Below are positions 89 to 42,800 of a stretch of 64,000 nt of DNA, piece after piece. Made by a program: the position numbers and the translations under genes. This stretch comes from Mobula hypostoma (taxonomy: Eukaryota): contig NC_086097.1 of the NCBI RefSeq assembly GCF_963921235.1, forward strand, positions 156,614,001 through 156,678,000, given 5' to 3'. The notes under the pieces are model-generated. The model made no database searches. It was not told the DNA's origin and worked only from the letters and a program-made list of their open reading frames with translations. Position 1 is the stretch's first letter. Every line of letters starts with the position of its first letter.

Positions 89-383
89 CCTAGTCCATTT
101 CCAAAACCTCCTTCGCCTTTCTCAATCTCACTGTCTCTGTCTTTGGTAACAGGTTTCCTACTGATGTCCATTATAAACCCATGGACTCTCACAGCAACCT
201 GGACTTTTCCTCTTCCCACAGTTTCACTTGTAAAAATGCCACCTTCTTCTCTCAATTCCTCAGTTTCTGCCGCATCTGCTCTCAGGTTGAGGCCTTTCAT
301 TCTAGAACAAAGGAGATGTCCTCCTTTTTCAAAGAAAGTGGCTTCCCTTCCTCCACCATCAATGCTGCCCTCAACCGCAAAAG

Positions 384-1734
384 ATAACAGCACATTTGGA
401 AAGCGGTGAAATGATCGGACAAAGTCAGCATGGATTTGTGAAAGGAAAATCATGTCTGACGAATCTCATAGAATTTTTTGAGGATGTAACTAGTAGAGTG
501 GATAGGGGAGAACCAGTGGATGTGGTATATTTGGATTTTCAAAAGGCTTTTGACAAGGTCCCACACAGGAGATTAGTGTGCAAACTTAAAGCACACGGTA
601 TTGGGGGTAAGGTATTGGTGTGGGTGGAGAATTGGTTAGCAGATAGGAAGCAAAGAGTGGGAATAAACGGGACCTTTTCAGAATGGCAGGCGGTGACTAG
701 TGGGCTACCGCAAGGCTCAGTGCTGGGACCCCAGTTGTTTACAATATATATTAATGACTTGGATGAGGGAATTAAATGCAGCATCTCCAAGTTTGCGGAT
801 GACACGAAGCTGGGTGGCAGTGTTAGCAGTGAGGAGGATGCTAAGAGGATGCAGGGTGACTTGGATAGGTTGGGTGAGTGGGCAAACTCATGGCAGATGC
901 AATTTAATGTGGATAAATGTGAAGTTATCCACTTTGGTGGCAAAAATAGGAAAACAGATTATTATCTGAATGGTGGCCGATTAGGAAAAGGGGAGGTGCA
1001 ACGAGACCTGGGTGTCATTATACACCAGTCATTGAAAGTGGGCATGCAAGTACAGCAGGCGGTGAAAAAGGCGAATGGTATGCTGGCATTTATAGCGAGA
1101 GGATTCGAGTACAGGAGCAGGGAGGTATTACTGCAGTTGTACAAGGCCTTGGTGAGACCACACCTGGAGTATTGTGTGCAGTTTTGGTCCCCTAATCTGA
1201 GGAAAGACATCTTTGCCATAGAGGGAGTACAAAGAAGGTTCACCAGATTGATTCCTGGGATGGCAGGTCTTTCATATGAAGAAAGACTGGATGAACTGGG
1301 CTTGTACTCGTTGGAATTTAGAAGATTGAGGGGGGATCTGATTGAAACGTATAAGATCCTAAAGGGATTGGACAGGCTAGATGCAGGAAGATTGTTCCAG
1401 ATGTTGGGGAAGTCCAGAACGAGGGGCCACAGTTTGAGGATAGAGGGGAAGCCTTTTAGGACCGAGATTAGGAAAAACTTCGTCACACAGAGAGTGGTGA
1501 ATCTGTGGAATTCTCTGCCACAGGTAACAGTTGAGGCCAGTTCATTGGCTATATTTAAGAGGGAGTTAGATATGGCCCTTGTGGCTACGGGGTCAGGGGG
1601 TATGGAGGGAAGGCTGGGGCAGGGTTCTGAGTTGGAGGATCAGCCATGATCATAATAAATGGCGGTGCAGGCTCGAAGGGCCGAATGGCCTACTCCTGCA
1701 CCTATTTTCTATGTTTCTATGTTTCTATGTTTCT
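384..1734 (+). mobile_element. Young 5'-truncated CR1 LINE
   Basis: RT ORF, short 3' UTR and (TTTCTATG)n tail at ~1707-1734; near-identical to copies at 11418 and 18560. Confidence 0.95.
396..1649 (+). CDS. CR1 ORF2 reverse transcriptase, C-terminal part (5'-truncated; small indel near the end)
   Basis: QHGF, YLDFQKAFDKV, PQGSVLGP, FADD, LVRPHLEYCVQFW motifs. Confidence 0.9.
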   Translation: MESGEMIGQSQHGFVKGKSCLTNLIEFFEDVTSRVDRGEPVDVVYLDFQKAFDKVPHRRLVCKLKAHGIGGKVLVWVENWLADRKQRVGINGTFSEWQAVTSGLPQGSVLGPQLFTIYINDLDEGIKCSISKFADDTKLGGSVSSEEDAKRMQGDLDRLGEWANSWQMQFNVDKCEVIHFGGKNRKTDYYLNGGRLGKGEVQRDLGVIIHQSLKVGMQVQQAVKKANGMLAFIARGFEYRSREVLLQLYKALVRPHLEYCVQFWSPNLRKDIFAIEGVQRRFTRLIPGMAGLSYEERLDELGLYSLEFRRLRGDLIETYKILKGLDRLDAGRLFQMLGKSRTRGHSLRIEGKPFRTEIRKNFVTQRVVNLWNSLPQVTVEASSLAIFKRELDMALVATGSGGMEGRLGQGSELEDQP

Positions 1735-14959: not shown

Positions 14960-15345
14960 CACAGAAGCAGTACTTCCAGGGTAGTAATTTCTGGATTGTT
15001 ACCTGTGCCATGTGCTAGTGAGGGTAGAAACAGGATGATTTGGCAGATAAGTATGTGGCTGAGAAGTTGGTACAAGGGGCAGGGCTTCAGGTTCTTGGAA
15101 CATTAGGATGTCTTCTAGGGGGTGGGGAGGGTGGTTGTCACAGTATGACCTGTACAAAATGAATGGGTTGCACCTGAACCTGAGGGGGACCAATATTCTT
15201 GAGGGCAGATTTGTTAGAGCTGTTGGGGGGGGGTGGTTTAAACTAATTTGGTAGCAGGGTGGGAACCAAAATAAAGGGTCTCAAGATAGATCGGATGGTT
15301 AGAAAAGCAAAGCTAGCATGCAGTCAGACTGTCAGGAAGGGCAAT
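14960..15345 (+). mobile_element. CR1 ORF1 3' end and ORF1/ORF2 junction relic
   Basis: VVISGLLPVP..RNRMIWQ..WLRSW..QGFRFLEH; TTTAAAC-TAA at 15237-15246. Confidence 0.8.
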
Positions 15346-18558: not shown

Positions 18559-18656
18559 ATAGAAACATAGAAACATAGAAAATAGGTGCAGGAGTAGGCC
18601 ATTCGGCCCTTTGAGCCTGCACCGCCATTTATTATGATTATGGCTGATCATCCAAC

Positions 18657-21600
18657 TCAGAACCCAGCCTTCCCTCCATACCCCCTGACCCCTGTAGCCA
18701 CAAGGGCCATATCTAACTTCCTTTTAAACATAGCTAATGAACTGGCCTCAACAGTTTGCTGTGGCAGAGAATTCCACAGATTCACCACTCTCTGTGTGAA
18801 GAGGTTTTTCCTAATCTCGGTCCTAAAAGGCTTCCCCTCTATCCTCAAACTGTGACCCCTCGTTCTGGACCTCCCCAACATCGGGAACAATCTTCCCGCA
18901 TCTAGCCTGTCCAATCCCTTTAGGATCTTATACGTTTCAATCAGATCCCCCCTCAATCTTCTAAATTCCAACGAGTACAAGCCCAGTTCATCCAGTCTTT
19001 CTTCATATGAAAGACCTGCCATCCCAGGAATCAATCTGGTGAACCTTCTTTGTACTCCCTCTATGGCAAAGATGTCTTTCCTCAGATTAGGGGACCAAAA
19101 CTGCACACAATACTCCAGGTGTGGTCTCACCAAGGCCTTGTACAACTGCAGAAGTACCTCCCTGCTCCTGTACTCGAATCCTCTCGCTATAAATGCCAGC
19201 ATACCGTTCGCCTTTTTCACCGCCTGCTGTACCTGCATGCCCACTTTCAATGACTGGTGTATAATGACACCCAGGTCTCGTTGCACCTCCCCTTTTCCTA
19301 ATCGGCCACCATTCAGATAATAATCTGTTTTCCTATTTTTGCCACCAAAGTGGATAACTTCACATTTATCCACATTAAATTGCATCTGCCATGAGTTTGC
19401 CCACTCACCCAACCTATCCAAGTCACCCTGCATCCTCTTAGCATCCTCCTCACTGCTAACACTGCCACCCAGCTTCGTGTCATCCGCAAACTTGGAGATG
19501 CTGCATTTAATTCCCTCATCCAAGTCATTAATATATATTGTAAACAACTGGGGTCCCAGCACTGACCCTTGCGGTACCCCACTAGTCACCGCCTGCCATT
19601 CTGAAAAGGTCCCGTTTATTCCCACTCTTTGCTTCCTGTCTGCTAACCAATTCTCCACCCACACCAATACCTTACCCCCAATACCGTGTGCTTTAAGTTT
19701 GCACACTAATCTCCTGTGTGGGACCTTGTCAAAAGTCTTTTGAAAATCCAAATATACCACATCCACTGGTTCTCCCCTATCCACTCTACTAGTTACATCC
19801 TCAAAAAATTCTATGAGATTCGTCAGACATGATTTTCCTTTCACAAATCCATGCTGACTTTGTCCGATGATTTCACCGCTTTCCAAATGTGCTGTTATCA
19901 CATCCTTGATAACTGACTCCAGCAGTTTCCCCACCACCGACGTTAGGCTAACGGGCCTATAATTCCCCAGTTTCTCTCTCCCTCCTTTTTTAAAAAAGTG
20001 GGGTTACATTAGCCACCCTCCAATCCTCAGGAACTAGTCCAGAATCTAACGAGTTTTGAAAAATTATCACTAATGCATCCACTATTTCTTGGGCTACTTC
20101 CTTAAGCACTCTGGGATGCAGACCATCTGGCCCTGGGGATTTATCTGCCTTCAATCCCTTCAATTTACCTAACACCACTTCCCTACTAACATGTATTTCA
20201 CTCAGTTCCTCCATCTCACTGGACCCTCTGTCCCTTACTATTTCTGGAAGATTATTTATGTCCTCCTTAGTGAAGACAGAACCAAAATAATTATTCAATT
20301 GGTCTGCCATGTCCTTGCTCTCCATAATCAATTCAACTGTTTCTGTCTGCAGGGGACCTACATTTGTCTTTATCAGTCTTTTCCTTTTTACATATCTATA
20401 AAAGCTTTTACAGTCCGTTTTTATGTTCTCTGCCAGTTTTCTCTCATAATCTTTTTTCCCCTTCCTAATTAAGCCCTTTGTCCTCCTCTGCTGAACTCTG
20501 AATTTCTCCCAGTCCTCAGGTGAGCCACTTTCTCTGGCTAATTTGTATGCTACTTCTTTGGAATTGATACTATCCCTAATTTCTCTTGTCAGCCACGGGT
20601 GCACTACCTTCCTTGATTTATTCTTTTGCCAAACTGGGATGAACAATTGTTGTAGTTCATCCATACAACCTTTAAATGCCTGCCATTGCATATCCACCGT
20701 CAATCCTTTAAGTGTCATTTGCCAGTCTATCTTAGCTAATTCACGACTCATACCTTCAAAGTTACCCCTCTTTAAGTTCAGAACCTTTGTTTCTGAATTA
20801 ACTATGTCACTCTCCATGTTAATGAAGAATTCCACCATATTATGGTCACTCTTACCCAAGGGGCCTCTCACGACAAGATTGCTAATTAACCCTTCCTCAT
20901 TGCTCAAAACCCAGTCCAGAATAGCCTGCTCTCTAGTCGGTTCCTCGACATGTTGGTTCAAAAAACCATCCCGCATACATTCCAAGAAATCCTCTTCCTC
21001 AGCACCTTTACCAATTTGGTTCACCCAATCTACATGTAGATTGAAGTCACCCATTATAACTGCTGTTCCTTTATTGCACACATTTCTAATTTCCTGTTTA
21101 ATACCATCTCCGACTTCACTACTACTGTTAGGTGGCCTGTACACAACTCCCACCAGCGTCTTCTGCCCCTTAGTGTTACGCAGCTCTACCCATATCGATT
21201 CCACATCTTCCCGGCTTATGTCCTTCCTTTCTATTGCGTTAATCTCTTTTTTAACCAGCAACGCCACCCCGCCTCCCCTTCCTTCATGTCTATCCCTCCT
21301 GAATATTGAATATCCCTGAACGTTGAGCTCCCATCCCTGGTCACCCTGGAGCCATGTCTCTGTGATCCCAACTATATCATAATCATTAATAACAATCTGC
21401 ACTTTCAATTCATCCACCTTATTACGAATGCTCCTTGCATTGACACATAAAGCCTTCAGGCGCTCTTTTACAACTCTCTTAGCCCTTTTTAATGCTTGCC
21501 CTGGATTTGTCGGCCTGCCACTTTTACTTTTCCCCTTTGTACTTTTTGCTTCTACGCTCACTTTACACCCCTCTGTCTCTCTGCACTGGTTCCCATCCCT

Positions 21601-21672
21601 CTGTTGTGAACTAACCTCCTCACACCTAGCCTCTTTAATTTGATTCCCACCCCCCAACCATTCTAGTTTAAA
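18657..21672 (-). CDS. CR1 ORF2: APE endonuclease + reverse transcriptase, split by one extra base at ~19992-19997
   Basis: ORFs 19990-21657 (NARS, ITETWL, GGGVA, YRPP, MGDFN, SDH) and 18657-19937 (RT); A6 run here versus A5 in the 12852 copy. Confidence 0.9.
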
Positions 21673-22598
21673 GTCACCTCAGTAGCCCCCGCTAATCTCC
21701 CTGCCAGGATATTGGTCCCCCTAGGATTTAAGTGTAACCCGTCCTTTTTGTACAGGTCACGCCTGCACCAATAGAGGTCCCAATGATCCAAAAACTTGAA
21801 TCCCTGCCCCCTGCTCCAATCCCTCAGCCACGCATTTATCCTCCACCTCATCGCATTCCTACTCTCACTGTCGCGTGGCACAGGCAGTAATCCTGAGATT
21901 ACTACCTTTGCGGTCCTTTTTCTCAACTCCCTTCCTAGCTCCCTATATTCTTCTTTCAGGACCTCATCCCTTTTCCTACCTATGTCATTGGTACCTATAT
22001 GTACCAGGACCTCTGGCTCTTCACCCTCCCACTTCAGGATATCTTGGACACGATCAGAAATATCCCGGACCCTGGCACCAGGGAGGCAAACTACCATCCG
22101 AGTCTCTGGACTGCGTCCACAGAATCGCCTATCTGACCCCCTTACTATCGAGTCCCCTATCACAACTGCCCTCCTCTTCCTTGCCCTACCCTTCTGAGCT
22201 ACAGGGCCAGACTCTGTGCCGGAGGCAGGGCCACTGTCGCTTCCCCCGGGTAAGCTGTCCCCTCCAACAGTACTCAAACAGGAGTACCTGTTGTTAAGGG
22301 GCACAGCCACCAGGGTACTCCCCATCACCTGCCTTTTCCCCTTCCCCCTCCTAACCGTGACCCACTTGTCTGCCTCCCGTGGCCCCGGCGTGACCACCTG
22401 CCTTCCACTCCTCTCTATCACCTCCTCGCTCTCCCTGACCAGACGAAGGTCATCGAGCTGCAGCTCCAGTTCCGTAACACGGTCCCTTAGGAGCTGCATC
22501 TCGATGCACTTGGCGCAGATGTAGACGTCCGGGAGGCTTGGAGACTCCTGGGCCTCCCACATCCGACACCGAGAACAGCAAACTGCCCTCACAGTCAT
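21663..22598 (-). CDS. CR1 ORF1p: zinc finger, leucine zipper, SGNH esterase
   Basis: CxxC..CxxC, LRDRVTELELQLDDL, GDSIVRG, HIGTND, DGLHLN; first ATG at 22598. Confidence 0.92.
   Translation of the reverse strand: MTVRAVCCSRCRMWEAQESPSLPDVYICAKCIEMQLLRDRVTELELQLDDLRLVRESEEVIERSGRQVVTPGPREADKWVTVRRGKGKRQVMGSTLVAVPLNNRYSCLSTVGGDSLPGGSDSGPASGTESGPVAQKGRARKRRAVVIGDSIVRGSDRRFCGRSPETRMVVCLPGARVRDISDRVQDILKWEGEEPEVLVHIGTNDIGRKRDEVLKEEYRELGRELRKRTAKVVISGLLPVPRDSESRNAMRWRINAWLRDWSRGQGFKFLDHWDLYWCRRDLYKKDGLHLNPRGTNILAGRLAGATEVTLN
21666..21672 (-). other. Candidate -1 ribosomal frameshift heptamer T_TTA_AAC
   Basis: ORF1 ends ACT TTA AAC TAG; -1 frame TTT AAA CTA GAA TGG TTG is ORF2. Confidence 0.65.
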
Positions 22599-22599
22599 A

Positions 22600-22829
22600 A
22601 TGCCCCTCTCCTCAAATAGCAACAGAAAATGAATGTCAAACCTTCCTCGCCTCGCCCGCTTCCGCCTAAGCCCGTTGAGCCAAAGCCCTTAAGTCTTCAC
22701 TCTGCTCCCGGCTCACTCCGCAGCCCGCAAACTACGCTGCCCGCTCTATGAGGCTCTGTTCCTTTTAAATCTGCCGCGCTGCACTGCCCGACGTCACATG
22801 CCTGCGCAGTCCCGCCTCTCAGAAAGCCG
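22600..22829 (-). promoter_or_regulatory. CR1 5' UTR / candidate internal promoter
   Basis: CpG-rich; GC-box-like GGCGGG, CRE-like TGACGT, TATA-like ATTTAAAAGG on the minus strand. Confidence 0.4.
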
Positions 22830-24478
22830 TGATCCAAGTGATTTGTTTATCTGCAGAACTTACAGTTTCCTAAGCACCTACTCTTTAGTAATACCAATAA
22901 TATTTGCTTCTATCCCCAGAAATGTTTTAATTTCTGCCACATTGTTAGTGTCTTCCACAGTAAAGACTGATGCAAAATACTTAGTAAGATTGTCTGCTAT
23001 TTCTTTATCTCCTATTATTACCTCTCTAGCATCATCTTCTAATGCTCCAATCTCCACTCTTGCCTCCCTTTTACTCTTTATATATCTTAAAAATCCTTTA
23101 TTATCCTCTCTGATATTTTGGCTAGCTTAACGTTACGTTTTATCTTTTCTCTCCTTATAGCTTTTTTTTATAAATAACCTTTGGAAGGTTTTTAAAAGCT
23201 TCCACATCCTTTAACTTCTGATTAGTTTTTGCTATATTACATGTCCTCTCTTTTGCTTTTATATTTTCTTTGATTTCCCTTGTCACCCACAGTTGCTTTA
23301 TCCTCTCTTTAGAATATTTTTTCTTCTTTGGGAGGTTTCTATATTGTGCCTTCCTAATTGCCTCCAGAAGCTCCAAGCATTGCTGTTTTGCCATCATCCC
23401 TGCTAGTGTCCCCTTCCAATCAATTTTGGCCAGTTCCTCTTTCATGCCTCTGTATTTGCCTTTACTGCACTATATTACTAATACATTTTACCTTATCTTT
23501 GTCCTCTCAAACTGTAGGATGAATTCTATTTTATTATGATCTCCCATTGGTTCCTTTACCTTAAGTTCACTAATCAATTTTGGATTATGACACAACACCC
23601 AATCCAGAATTGCCTTTTCCTTAGTAGTCTCAAGCACAAGCTGCTCTAAAAAGTCATTTCCTCTGCATTCTACAATTTCTTTCTCTTAGGATCAAATGCC
23701 TGGGTGTATTCTGGAGTTAGGGTACATAGTAAATATTAATTTCACCAGCAACCAATCTTCAGACATGAACGTGGATTGTAGATTGAATTTAAAATGAAGC
23801 CCTGATCAATAGTTTTCCTGGAGCTGTCGACTGGAGTTGATTGCAAACCAGACAATGCTGATTAACATTCATCTTGGGTGTCTGGATTGTGGGTGTGAAG
23901 AAGGAGGTGTATGAAAACTGTATGTAAATCAATTGAAGCATTGTAGGTACATTGTAACTATAGAATTGTCTTGCTGTTACTTTTGATCTTTAGTATATGA
24001 AAATGACATGTAATATTGAGTTGCTGGGCCCCTTCTTCTGATGCCTGCTGTTTCTTGGTGATGAATACAGCAATTCTGTATTCATTAGCCGCAATGTCTC
24101 TCTGGTGACTTAATTCACATCACAATACCAGCATTAAACTGATTTTCCCCAATCCCTCCAGATTGGAATTTCTTTGACAATTGGAACATTGCCCTTTTCA
24201 TATCCCTTTTCTTTTTCCCATTGAAATTTATATTCCACATCCTAGCTACTGTCTGGGGGCTTGTATATAACTTTCATCAGTTTTTTTTTACTCTTGCGGT
24301 TGCTTAATTGTACCCACAAGGGTTCTACATCTTCCAGTCCTATGTCACTTCTTTGAAAGCATTTGATTTCATTCTTCAATAACAGAGCCACCCTAACTCC
24401 TCTGCCTACCTGGCTGTCCTTTTGATATAAAATATATCCTTGGATGCTAAGCACCCAGCTATGATATTTTATCAGGCA
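22830..24478 (-). mobile_element. Old CR1 5' half (endonuclease region), with unrelated sequence at ~23700-24120
   Basis: ORFs 23155-23445 (EELAKIDWKG) and 24242-24541 (IQGY..RGVRVALL..IYKPP). Confidence 0.75.
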
Positions 24479-39829: not shown

Positions 39830-42800
39830 AGGCAACTTTCCTGTCACATCACTGGCTATCCTGCCATACCACCGAGTATTCTGTTTTGGATTCTGCTTTG
39901 GGGGATGACCTTCCAGGGGAATGCCACAGAGACCAGGTTACAGGCACTGAGCATGGGCTTGTGGTGCAGAAGAGGAAGAGGGAGAAGAGGGGAGCGGTAC
40001 AGATAGGGGACTCAATAGTCAGGGGAACTGATAGGAGGTTCTGTTGACATGAACAGGTCACCCAAATGGTATGTTGCCTCCCAGGTGCCAGGGTTAGGTA
40101 CGCCTCGGATCATGTCCACAGCATTTTGAAAGGGGAGAGAAAGCAGCTTGATGTCTTGGTACATATTGGTACCACTGACATGGGAAGGAAAAGCAAAGAA
40201 GTCCTGAAAATAGAATTTTGAGAGCTAGGCAGAAAGCTGCAAAGCAGAACCTCCTGGGTAGTAATTTTTGGACTGTTGCTTGTGCAACGTGCCAGTGAGG
40301 GTGGAAACAGGATAATTTGGTAGATTAGTGCATGCTCAGAAGCTGGTGCAGAGGGCAGGGCTTCACATTCTTGGATCATTGTGTCATAAGGGGGATATTG
40401 GGAACAGACCTAAAAGCAAGATACAGACACTGAAGTACTAGAAACAGTACTGGACAAAGCTGAAGGACGGGACAGGTTGCAGACTAGGCTAGGGAAGCAG
40501 GACTAGGACAGGGGACTGGGAACAAGGAGCCTGGGCATGGACTCCGAGCCAGAGACTGGACAAGGACCCGGAACCTGGGTCTTGACTTGGGCTCGGACCC
40601 CAAAACCAGGTGAAGACATGACGAGGCTTGGGTTCTTGGAGACCAGGCGAAGACATGACGAGGCTTGGGTTCTTGGAGACCAGGCGAAGACGTGATGAGG
40701 CTTGGGTTCTTGGAGGCTAGACGAGGACATGACAGGGCAAGGGTACTATGAAGCAACTCTTGGGAAGGATGCAGGACTCCTGGGCAGGACGCGGGACTCT
40801 ACCCCACTGAGACAAGGACAGGGAGGGACAGACTCAACCACAGGGTAATGACCAATGGCCTGGCTTACCCGACGGAGGCAAGGGACAGGAAGGGACAGAA
40901 CCAACCGCAGGGTAATGGCAAATGGCCTGGCTTGCCCAACAGAGGCAAGGGACAGGAAGGGAGCTAGGTCCGGGTTGGCTCCAAGACTCAAGGAGGCCGG
41001 TAACCTTGGCGGGCTACAGAACAGCCAAATCCATATCTCGATGACTGCACTAGCCTTCCACCAGTGGGTTGCTCCAAGGGGAGACTGACAAGACAACCCA
41101 GCATCCACGCTCAATCCCAGGGCCACTTATATTCCCAGCCCCAAGATGAGCATCAGGTGCTTATGGTTAAGTCCAACCGAAACCAGGGACAGCCGGAAGA
41201 CCCGGAGTCCGGAGACTGCGGACCGGACCGTGAACCAGAATGCAGACTTTGGACCGGATCATGACACATTGGGATCTTACTCTGGGTGGGTATGACCTGT
41301 AAAAAGTGATGGGTTGCAGCTGAACTCAAGAAGGATAATATTCTCACGGGCAGGTTTGTTAGTGCTGTTAGGGAGAGTTTAAACTAATTTGGCAGAGTGG
41401 TGGTTACCGGAGTGAAGGGACTCAGGATAAGACAGATAGTAAAAAAAGAGATAGCGTGCAGTCAGACTGGCAGGAAGGGCAGGCAGATGATAGGACAAAA
41501 TTACTGCCAGCAGGCTGAGTATCAGTGCATTAGGGATGCAGAATCAAAAAGGGTAGCCAAAGTGTTATATCTCAATGCATGGAGTATAAGAAATCAGGCG
41601 GATGATCTTGCTGCACTATTACAGATTGTCAAGTATGATGTTGTGACTATCAGTGAATTGCAGCTGAAAGATGGTTGTAGTTGGGAGCTGAATGTCCAAG
41701 GTTACAATGTTGTATCAGAGGGATAGGACAATAGGCAGAGGGAGTGGCATGGCTCTGCTGGTAAATAATAGCATCAAATTAGTAGAAAGATGTCACATAG
41801 GATCGGAGGATGTTGAATCCCTGTGGGTTGAGTTAAGAAAATGCAATGGTATAAAGACCGTGGTGGCAGTTATATTCAAGTCTCCCGACAGTAGAAGGAA
41901 AGTGAACCATAGATTACAATGGGAAATAGAAAATGCATGTTAAAAGGGCAATGTTATGATAGTCATGGGAGATTTCAATATGCAGATCAATTGGGAAAAT
42001 GAGGTTGGTAATGGATCTCATGACAGTGAGTTTGTTGAATGCTTGTGAGATAGATTTTTAGAACTGTTTGTCACTGAGCTTACTAGGGGTCCAGCTATAC
42101 TGGATTGTATGTTACGTAATGAACCAGAGGTGATTAGGGAGCTTAAGGTGAAAGAGCCCTCAGGATGCACTGATCACAATATGATTGAGTTCAACTTGGA
42201 ATTTGATAGGGAGAAAGTAAAGTCTGACATAGCAGTATTTCAGTGGAGTAAAGGAAACTACAGTGGTATGAGAGAGGAGTTGGCCAAAGTAACTTAGAAG
42301 GAGCTGCTGGCATGGATGACAGCAGAGTAGCAATGGCATGAGTTTCCAGGAAAAATGAGGAAGGTGCAGGATAAATGTGTTCCAAACATGAAGGAAAACT
42401 CAAATAGCAATATAGTACAAACAAGGCTGATAAGGGAAGTCAAATCTAATATAAAAGCATAAGAGAGAGCATACAATTAGCAAAAAGCAAAAATTAGCAG
42501 AAAGATAGAGGTTTGAGAAGCTTTTAACAACCTACTGAGAGCAACTAAAAGGATCATTAAGACGGAAAAGATGAAATACGAAAGCAAGCTATCAAATAAT
42601 ATCAAAGCGGACAGTAAAAGCTTTTTCAAGTATGTAAAATATAATAAAAGAGATGAGAGTGGATATAGGACTACTACAAAATGAAGTTGAAGAAATAATA
42701 ATGGAGGGCAAGGAGATGACAAATGAACTAAATTAGTATTTTGAATTAGTCTTCACTGTGGAATGGACTAGCAATGTACCAGTAGTTGAAGGGTGTGAGG

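Follow-up and report, generated by a model that had tools for sequence, protein, structure and literature searches.

Our analysis indicates that the second open reading frame (ORF2) of CR1 retrotransposons is very probably made by programmed −1 frameshifting (PRF), which would give an esterase-APE-RT fusion protein of about 1,313 amino acids (aa). CR1 elements rank with the most frequent repeats in sharks, reptiles, and birds, and the copy analyzed here lies in a 64,000-nucleotide (nt) stretch of the Mobula hypostoma genome (contig NC_086097.1), hereafter the window. In the proposed course of events, ribosomes would initiate at the ORF1 AUG, and the majority would terminate at the codon directly after the slippery heptamer U_UUA_AAC, yielding ORF1p of 311 aa. 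A minority would shift one base backward at the heptamer, decode Leu where the stop had been, and continue through a linker, the APE endonuclease, and the reverse transcriptase (RT) to produce an ORF1-ORF2 fusion (311 + 1,002 = 1,313 aa by arithmetic), which would be less abundant than ORF1p, as Gag-Pol is relative to Gag. We infer the slippage itself from the geometry of the junction, the open −1 frame, the absence of a conserved AUG, and the constraint on nucleotides; its low rate is likewise presumed, and the fusion may stay intact.

The young full-length CR1 occupies positions 18559 to 22830 on the minus strand (4,272 bp) and sits within a decayed older CR1 ORF2 fragment. Alignments of 19 of 35 sibling loci begin at 22830, with the remaining loci beginning further in, and all six long sibling loci stop at 18559 to 18563, at about 99% identity. 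A CpG-rich 5′ untranslated region (UTR) of about 230 nt (22599 to 22830) precedes ORF1 (21663 to 22598; ATG at 22598, TAG at 21665 to 21663), whose 311-aa product ends in …EVTLN, matches a Mobula hypostoma entry at 97% identity, and comprises a CX2C-X16-CX2C zinc-finger-like motif, a coiled-coil-like segment (both assigned by eye from the sequence), and an SGNH esterase (Pfam PF13472, E = 1.6e-16). Downstream, an AUG-less linker of about 70 codons (21463 to 21665), open in the −1 frame only, leads into the APE endonuclease and tether of the 5′ part of ORF2 (19990 to 21462). The 3′ part encodes the RT (18657 to 20003; Pfam RVT_1, E = 3.7e-33), which lies in another frame in the window copy, and is followed by a 3′ UTR (18559 to 18656) ending in short TTTCTATG-type repeats with no poly(A). 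The domain order, APE (PF03372/PF14529) and then RT (PF00078), is uninterrupted in five of six long siblings. The 3′ end thus consists of short tandem repeats, with LTR and poly(A) absent, and sibling alignments reveal frequent 5′ truncation. By its domain content and ends, the element is assigned to the esterase-type CR1 non-LTR retrotransposons. The same SGNH ORF1, APE and RT in ORF2, short 3′ repeats, and 5′-truncated copies are described in the available parts of the accounts of these elements (Schneider 2013; GBE 2026 evag155).

The family is young: 1,376 candidate loci were found, and the 40 that were scored were all 99 to 100% identical. A T-run at 19997 to 19992 has six T in the window copy versus five in 34/34 siblings that carry the anchor (35 examined); this extra base, private to the window copy, breaks ORF2, so the window copy cannot make a full-length product. 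The run belongs to the stretch encoding the conserved PLFKKG (20003 to 19985, minus strand), a T5-A6 run in which the extra base arose; next to it, sibling L010 carries a deletion.

At the junction, TTTAAAC occupies 21672 to 21666 on the minus strand in exact X_XXY_YYZ phase with ORF1 (…ACT TTA AAC TAG), as the earlier note on this DNA had described, and cross-family alignments support the same assignment. The ORF1 stop (21663 to 21665) lies directly 3′ of the heptamer; it is TAG here and TAA or TGA in other families. A TGA at 21679 to 21681, two codons upstream of the heptamer, closes the −1 frame on its 5′ side and is present in 29/30 siblings, so that the two frames overlap by the short distance claimed (16 nt including the ORF1 stop) with the heptamer inside. 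We also found the G-rich tract where it had been placed after the heptamer, at 21655 to 21650. The first ATG of the −1 frame is likewise the one named in the earlier note, at 21054 (in VIMGDFN); it is codon 209 of the stop-to-stop frame and falls inside the endonuclease, whose Pfam match spans ORF2 residues 93 to 279. All 30 fetched sibling loci carry this junction, with the first Met of the −1 frame at about codon 207, and in five of the six long siblings an open frame of 1,004 codons extends from the heptamer. An in-frame AUG upstream of the APE domain in the family had been proposed as evidence against frameshifting, and none occurs in any of the 29 open siblings. Given these open siblings and the private T, the −1 frame of the active form held an AUG-less ORF2.

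On the composition of the element, the probability of TTTAAAC at one given spot is 4.7e-5, and that of any in-frame X_XXY_YYZ is about 2e-3. The heptamer followed by a stop occurs three times in the window, versus a shuffle mean of 0.75 and a maximum of 3 in 100 shuffles, which makes the raw count weak evidence; each of the three sites closes a CR1 ORF1 (21672, minus strand; 15237 and 41378, plus strand). The two plus-strand sites, each reading TTTAAAC TAA, are junctions of a second and a third, older CR1 family (15237 to 15246 and 41378 to 41387). In the latter copy, about 0.9 kb of inserted DNA with short internal tandem repeats (about 40385 to 41265, plus strand) splits ORF1 within the esterase.

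A geometry of this kind would also be expected if the frames were joined at the RNA level, either by polymerase slippage on TTTAAA that adds a base or by splicing of ORF1 to ORF2, and the TAG of the young family could resemble a splice acceptor. However, the runs are only 3 nt long, there is no conserved AG because other families have TAA or TGA as the stop, and a base added in RNA would enter new insertions, yet 30/30 young copies keep the unshifted junction. We regard an RNA-level correction as very improbable. As to expression, none of the 24 read runs for the stretch is on record as RNA; four runs of uncertain type contained 15 joints, none of which recurred in a second contig or run, and the single GT..AG joint among them ran antisense to the element, so that these runs are uninformative.

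To place the junction in a wider context, we compared it across CR1 families, anchoring each junction with an esterase profile that lacked the last residues. Of 130 loci examined, 109 had a C-terminal esterase match, and the 90 with an in-frame stop 8 to 17 codons later were used; single linkage at 82% grouped these into 19 clusters, 8 from the ray's own genome and 11 from metagenome contigs, with between-cluster DNA identities of 0.32 to 0.81 (median, 0.45). TTTAAAC plus a stop ends ORF1 in 18 of the 19 clusters, and in the remaining one (L120) the motif is displaced from the anchor by one base. The identity of the stop varies (TAG, TAA, or TGA), yet it always adjoins the heptamer. Among further loci of the own genome, some of them repeats of loci already counted, the heptamer was present in 19/20. 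An own-genome search with protein P0054 recovered loci already counted, and those with P0022 and P0240, at overly strict E cut-offs, gave no match. APE identities of intact representatives to the young family were 41 to 60%, taken pairwise from an alignment of the loci collected here, several of which are broken and distort the tree. Searching the vertebrate alignment against viral contigs gave no match.

The Leu-Asn end could itself be what is conserved, since xLN forms the end of the last esterase helix and the families are related; the heptamer would then be a by-product of protein constraint and shared descent, and ORF2 would start at a downstream AUG. Codon usage argues strongly against this. 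In 17 representatives (L120, being off anchor, and L051, a single decayed copy, were omitted), the Leu codon was TTA in 17/17 versus 33/223 (15%) in the background, and the Asn codon was AAC in 16/17 versus 29/77. The codon before this Leu ended in T in all 17 representatives, across eight different amino acids. Codon choice is thus fixed where the amino acid is free, whereas codons of the nearby catalytic DGLHL motif, used as a control, vary (Asp, GAT 10 and GAC 4; His, CAC 9 and CAT 4; Leu, five codons). Moreover, the esterase in PDB 4C1B, an ORF1-encoded protein matched by esterase profile A1 (E = 2.5e-49), lacks the LN ending, and starting at the first AUG would cost the young family the N-terminal half of APE. 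Protein constraint is therefore largely refuted as the explanation, and we give it scarcely any weight. The clusters share ancestry, so that 17/17 does not amount to 17 independent trials. The test of synonymous constraint at the heptamer that the earlier note had suggested thus comes out positive across deeply diverged CR1 families, and by these codon patterns the constraint acts on nucleotides, beyond coding need.

We further surveyed the C termini of ORF1-like proteins, using the 167 of 252 homologues that have a DGxH-type motif 20 to 45 residues from the end; the full-length protein queries slightly favor LN-ending matches but not the codons used. LN formed the C-terminal end in 120/167, and the named sources of these proteins include sharks, rays, the coelacanth Latimeria, Hyla, Xenopus, turtles, lizards, a snake, and a hummingbird. 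The residue before LN was one without a T-ending codon (E, K, Q, M, or W) in only 2/120 proteins, compared with 44/120 and 47/120 at the next two positions. Among distant proteins ending in GN, 7/7 end in QGN. This end fits CAG GGA AAC, that is, G_GGA_AAC, a second slippery heptamer, as read from the protein; we found no DNA behind the QGN ends in viral contigs, prokaryote genome contigs, the own genome (E ≤ 1e-32), or longer proteins. An apparent switch between two shifty heptamers is what selection for slippage predicts. The other 40 of the 167 proteins end otherwise and are distant esterases or mutated copies. Four distant ORF1s (P0201, P0229, P0174, and P0210) end in SKN, QEN, LEN, and FFN, respectively, and the SKN end is compatible, at the level of the protein sequence, with A_AAA_AAC, a third slippery heptamer. 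Taking the DNA and protein comparisons together, the signal appears common to esterase-type CR1s across jawed vertebrates and more distant relatives and not peculiar to one CR1.

We next consider the frame of ORF2 at loci with the heptamer and a stop. APE lay in the −1 frame behind an open linker at 29/30 loci of the young family, 34/46 of other ray families, 8/12 metagenome loci (of the 12, 4 had no APE match), and 2/16 of an old decayed family; at no locus of any group was the linker open in a frame other than −1. Open linkers were 99 to 312 nt long, the other two frames contained stops in all 44 open linkers outside the young family, and the −1 frame was closed 1 to 5 codons upstream in most loci. 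No ATG was present in 53 of the 73 open linkers. The remaining 20 had one, at positions unshared between families, with several bird-like linkers carrying it at −1 codon 5; by its position, such an ATG would allow reinitiation in those families. P0269, a mutated member of a distant cluster, continues as …FKLVGKGG, the same −1-frame pattern.

Termination and reinitiation in the style of L1 and SART1 would account for ORF2 if ribosomes, having stopped at the end of ORF1, resumed in the −1 frame close by, at a non-AUG codon or an AUG particular to the family, with ORF2p made as a separate protein and the heptamer and G-run acting as a reinitiation signal. Precedent in LINEs speaks for it, L1 and SART1 being the two tested cases, as do the adjoining stop in every cluster that has the heptamer, a TTG at −1 codon 6 in the young family, and the ATGs of the 20 linkers. 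However, a UAAUG-type stop-start overlap, or an AUG beside the ORF1 stop as in SART1, is absent from the families compared, and no start codon is common to them. Reinitiation, moreover, needs neither a fixed −1 frame nor the exact X_XXY_YYZ phase nor the apparent switch to a second heptamer. We consider reinitiation unlikely, albeit the least improbable of the alternatives weighed here. Both sequence-level tests named in the earlier note favor frameshifting, and its suggestion that this CR1 makes an esterase-APE-RT fusion is in that measure supported. As judged from the genomic sequences, this major LINE clade carries at the junction a genuine recoding-type signal that is old and under strong constraint.

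Natural single-ORF fusions were also sought among longer proteins, and none of the four found had an intact esterase followed by APE and then RT; P0276 resembles a mutation-fused copy, and P0278 and P0279 carry the esterase after the RT. One genomic ORF1 match (G000:C1:217918353-217919180, plus strand) lies inside a 1,097-aa open frame and is probably a copy whose ORF1 and ORF2 were put in one frame by mutation.

A conserved G motif downstream of the heptamer (21646 to 21655, minus strand) is the candidate frameshift stimulator. Counted from the heptamer, GGGGG occupies +11 to +15 in 17/19 clusters by the stop anchor, or in 18 with L120 re-anchored, usually with a GGG 2 nt further on (G at +18, +19, and +20 in 16, 17, and 15 of 19 clusters, respectively); within the element, only 12 of 4,272 positions begin a GGGGG. 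In the 17 representatives, −1-frame codon 7 was always GGG (background, 87/228), codon 6 always ended in G over five amino acids, and codon 8 always started with G. This pattern over codons 6 to 8 implies that the G-run, too, is a nucleotide-level signal.

The coronavirus parallel drawn in the earlier note extends no further than the heptamer, as no downstream RNA structure was found. Five folds gave no local structure downstream of the heptamer (z, −0.60 to +0.32) with a tool that does not predict pseudoknots, and the region contains too little C to form strong stems. Across 19 elements, the 30 nt after the heptamer had no shared long-range partner; the best partners lay at differing places per family, mostly within the shuffle range. 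A search of Rfam returned three weak matches, all far below the gathering score. G-quadruplex patterns were not universal, being met with in 11/19 representatives in two-tier form and 2/19 in three-tier form, and natural G-quadruplex stimulators are not known according to the available text of Atkins 2016 (PMC5009743). A stable RNA structure 5 to 9 nt downstream, which classically defines −1 PRF, was accordingly not seen; by its sequence features, the CR1 junction resembles a −1 PRF site in operation, although it falls outside this classical definition.

The adjacent stop and the G-run are candidates for the stimulating role, and a nearby stop was required for −1 shifting in one reported case (PMC5009743). 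That the G-run is invariant while RNA structure is lacking suggests a stimulator of an unusual type. As a tentative extension, which we consider possible but rather less than even in likelihood, esterase-type CR1s may have kept a structure-free −1 signal (U_UUA_AAC, stop, 7 nt, GGGGG) since before the shark/bony-vertebrate split, in which a G-run-binding protein at the ribosomal mRNA entry, together with slow termination, would set the ratio of ORF1p to fusion. The binder could be a host G-tract-binding protein or ORF1p itself, acting as a feedback sensor. Read in this protein-bound way, the CR1 signal would be the mirror image of the C-rich arterivirus switch, placed in the main LINE of non-mammalian vertebrates. 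In the arterivirus PRRSV, nsp2 frameshifting is trans-activated by nsp1beta and PCBP on CCCANCUCC, 11 nt 3′ of the shift site, as summarized in PMC5009743. CR1 resembles PRRSV in having a short unstructured low-complexity motif with its first base at +11, which is a positional analogy only; the CR1 motif is G-rich and not C-rich, the heptamer is another one, and the CR1 binding protein is hypothetical.

Among better-known systems, the coronavirus IBV ORF1a/1b junction and the logic of retroviral gag-pol are like CR1 in the heptamer and its phase, in the short overlap, and in a downstream −1 ORF that encodes the polymerase and lacks a usable start. CR1 differs from IBV in that the host element is a LINE, a pseudoknot or hairpin was undetected, and the 0-frame stop always adjoins the heptamer. 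U_UUA_AAC and G_GGA_AAC are listed among the shiftiest heptamers on mammalian ribosomes (Atkins 2016, PMC5009743), a review whose available text covers HeT-A, TART, and L1 among non-LTR elements and does not mention CR1. L1 and SART1 share with CR1 a bicistronic LINE mRNA and an ORF2 dependent on ORF1 translation, but they make a separate ORF2p, SART1 via UAAUG, whereas the CR1 junction has no AUG and has a conserved slippery site. Recoding has been proposed in other retroelements without LTRs, namely, Penelope-like elements, in whose two-ORF forms a figure legend mentions a "frameshift with a pseudoknot" (PMC8557442, Fig. 1), the Drosophila HeT-A gag, and Paramecium LINEs, for which a +1 shift or reinitiation has been suggested (PMC5405496). 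They are unlike CR1 in that the HeT-A shift lies within gag, the Paramecium shift is +1, and the Penelope shift has a pseudoknot, and all belong to other clades.

Published accounts of esterase-type CR1s describe two ORFs and, in their available parts, are silent on ORF2 translation (Schneider 2013; GBE 2026 evag155); the accessible text of the latter (PMC13343379) makes no mention of translation, overlap, or start codon. The corresponding parts of the Fourth Chicken Report (PMC11835228) likewise give CR1 two ORFs and mention frameshifting only for ALV. LINE ORF2 translation is described as unclear or as occurring by reinitiation (PMC3708506, PMC2881922). A CR1 frameshift was absent from the available text of PMC4120745, PMC3905857, PMC5408684, PMC4255032, PMC13405545, PMC7175516, and 10.64898/2026.10.23.761439, and no such proposal was found in the literature searched; a passing suggestion in older CR1 papers, e.g., the original chicken or turtle ones, is possible. 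While −1 frameshifting itself is known, a conserved signal for it in CR1 LINEs, with a structure-free candidate stimulator, thus appears to be unreported in that literature.

CR1 has been described as the dominant retrotransposon of most vertebrates, and reinitiation is the only tested answer so far for LINE ORF2 translation in the available parts of PMC3708506 and PMC2881922. If frameshifting is indeed used, LINEs would have a second, gag-pol-like solution, and the CR1 enzyme would be an esterase-APE-RT fusion. ORF2 annotation would then change, as start codons chosen in the linker would be wrong, and the design of CR1 mobility assays and ideas on the role of the esterase would be affected.

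Several minor observations concern CR1 copies and annotations. The young CR1 was inserted in the ORF2 of the older CR1 in the same orientation, with pieces of older CR1 on both sides (24463 to 22830 and 18515 to 18171, minus strand) and a clear target-site duplication absent at the 22830 and 18559 ends. Two 5′-truncated copies of the young family, 97% identical and comprising the RT part only, lie elsewhere in the window (13082 to 11414, minus strand; 383 to 1728, plus strand). P0020, listed as an "SGNH/GDSL hydrolase" of Pseudomonas aeruginosa, shares 60% identity with ORF1 and has an end like that of shark CR1 ORF1; it is likely host contamination of a bacterial assembly. Finally, P0062/P0063, P0026, P0120, P0276, and P0277 are CR1 ORF1 or ORF1-ORF2 pieces inside ray RefSeq host-gene models (TMEM204, RPS24, ABHD14A-like, HAO2, and VSIG10L2), reflecting either mis-annotation or exonization.
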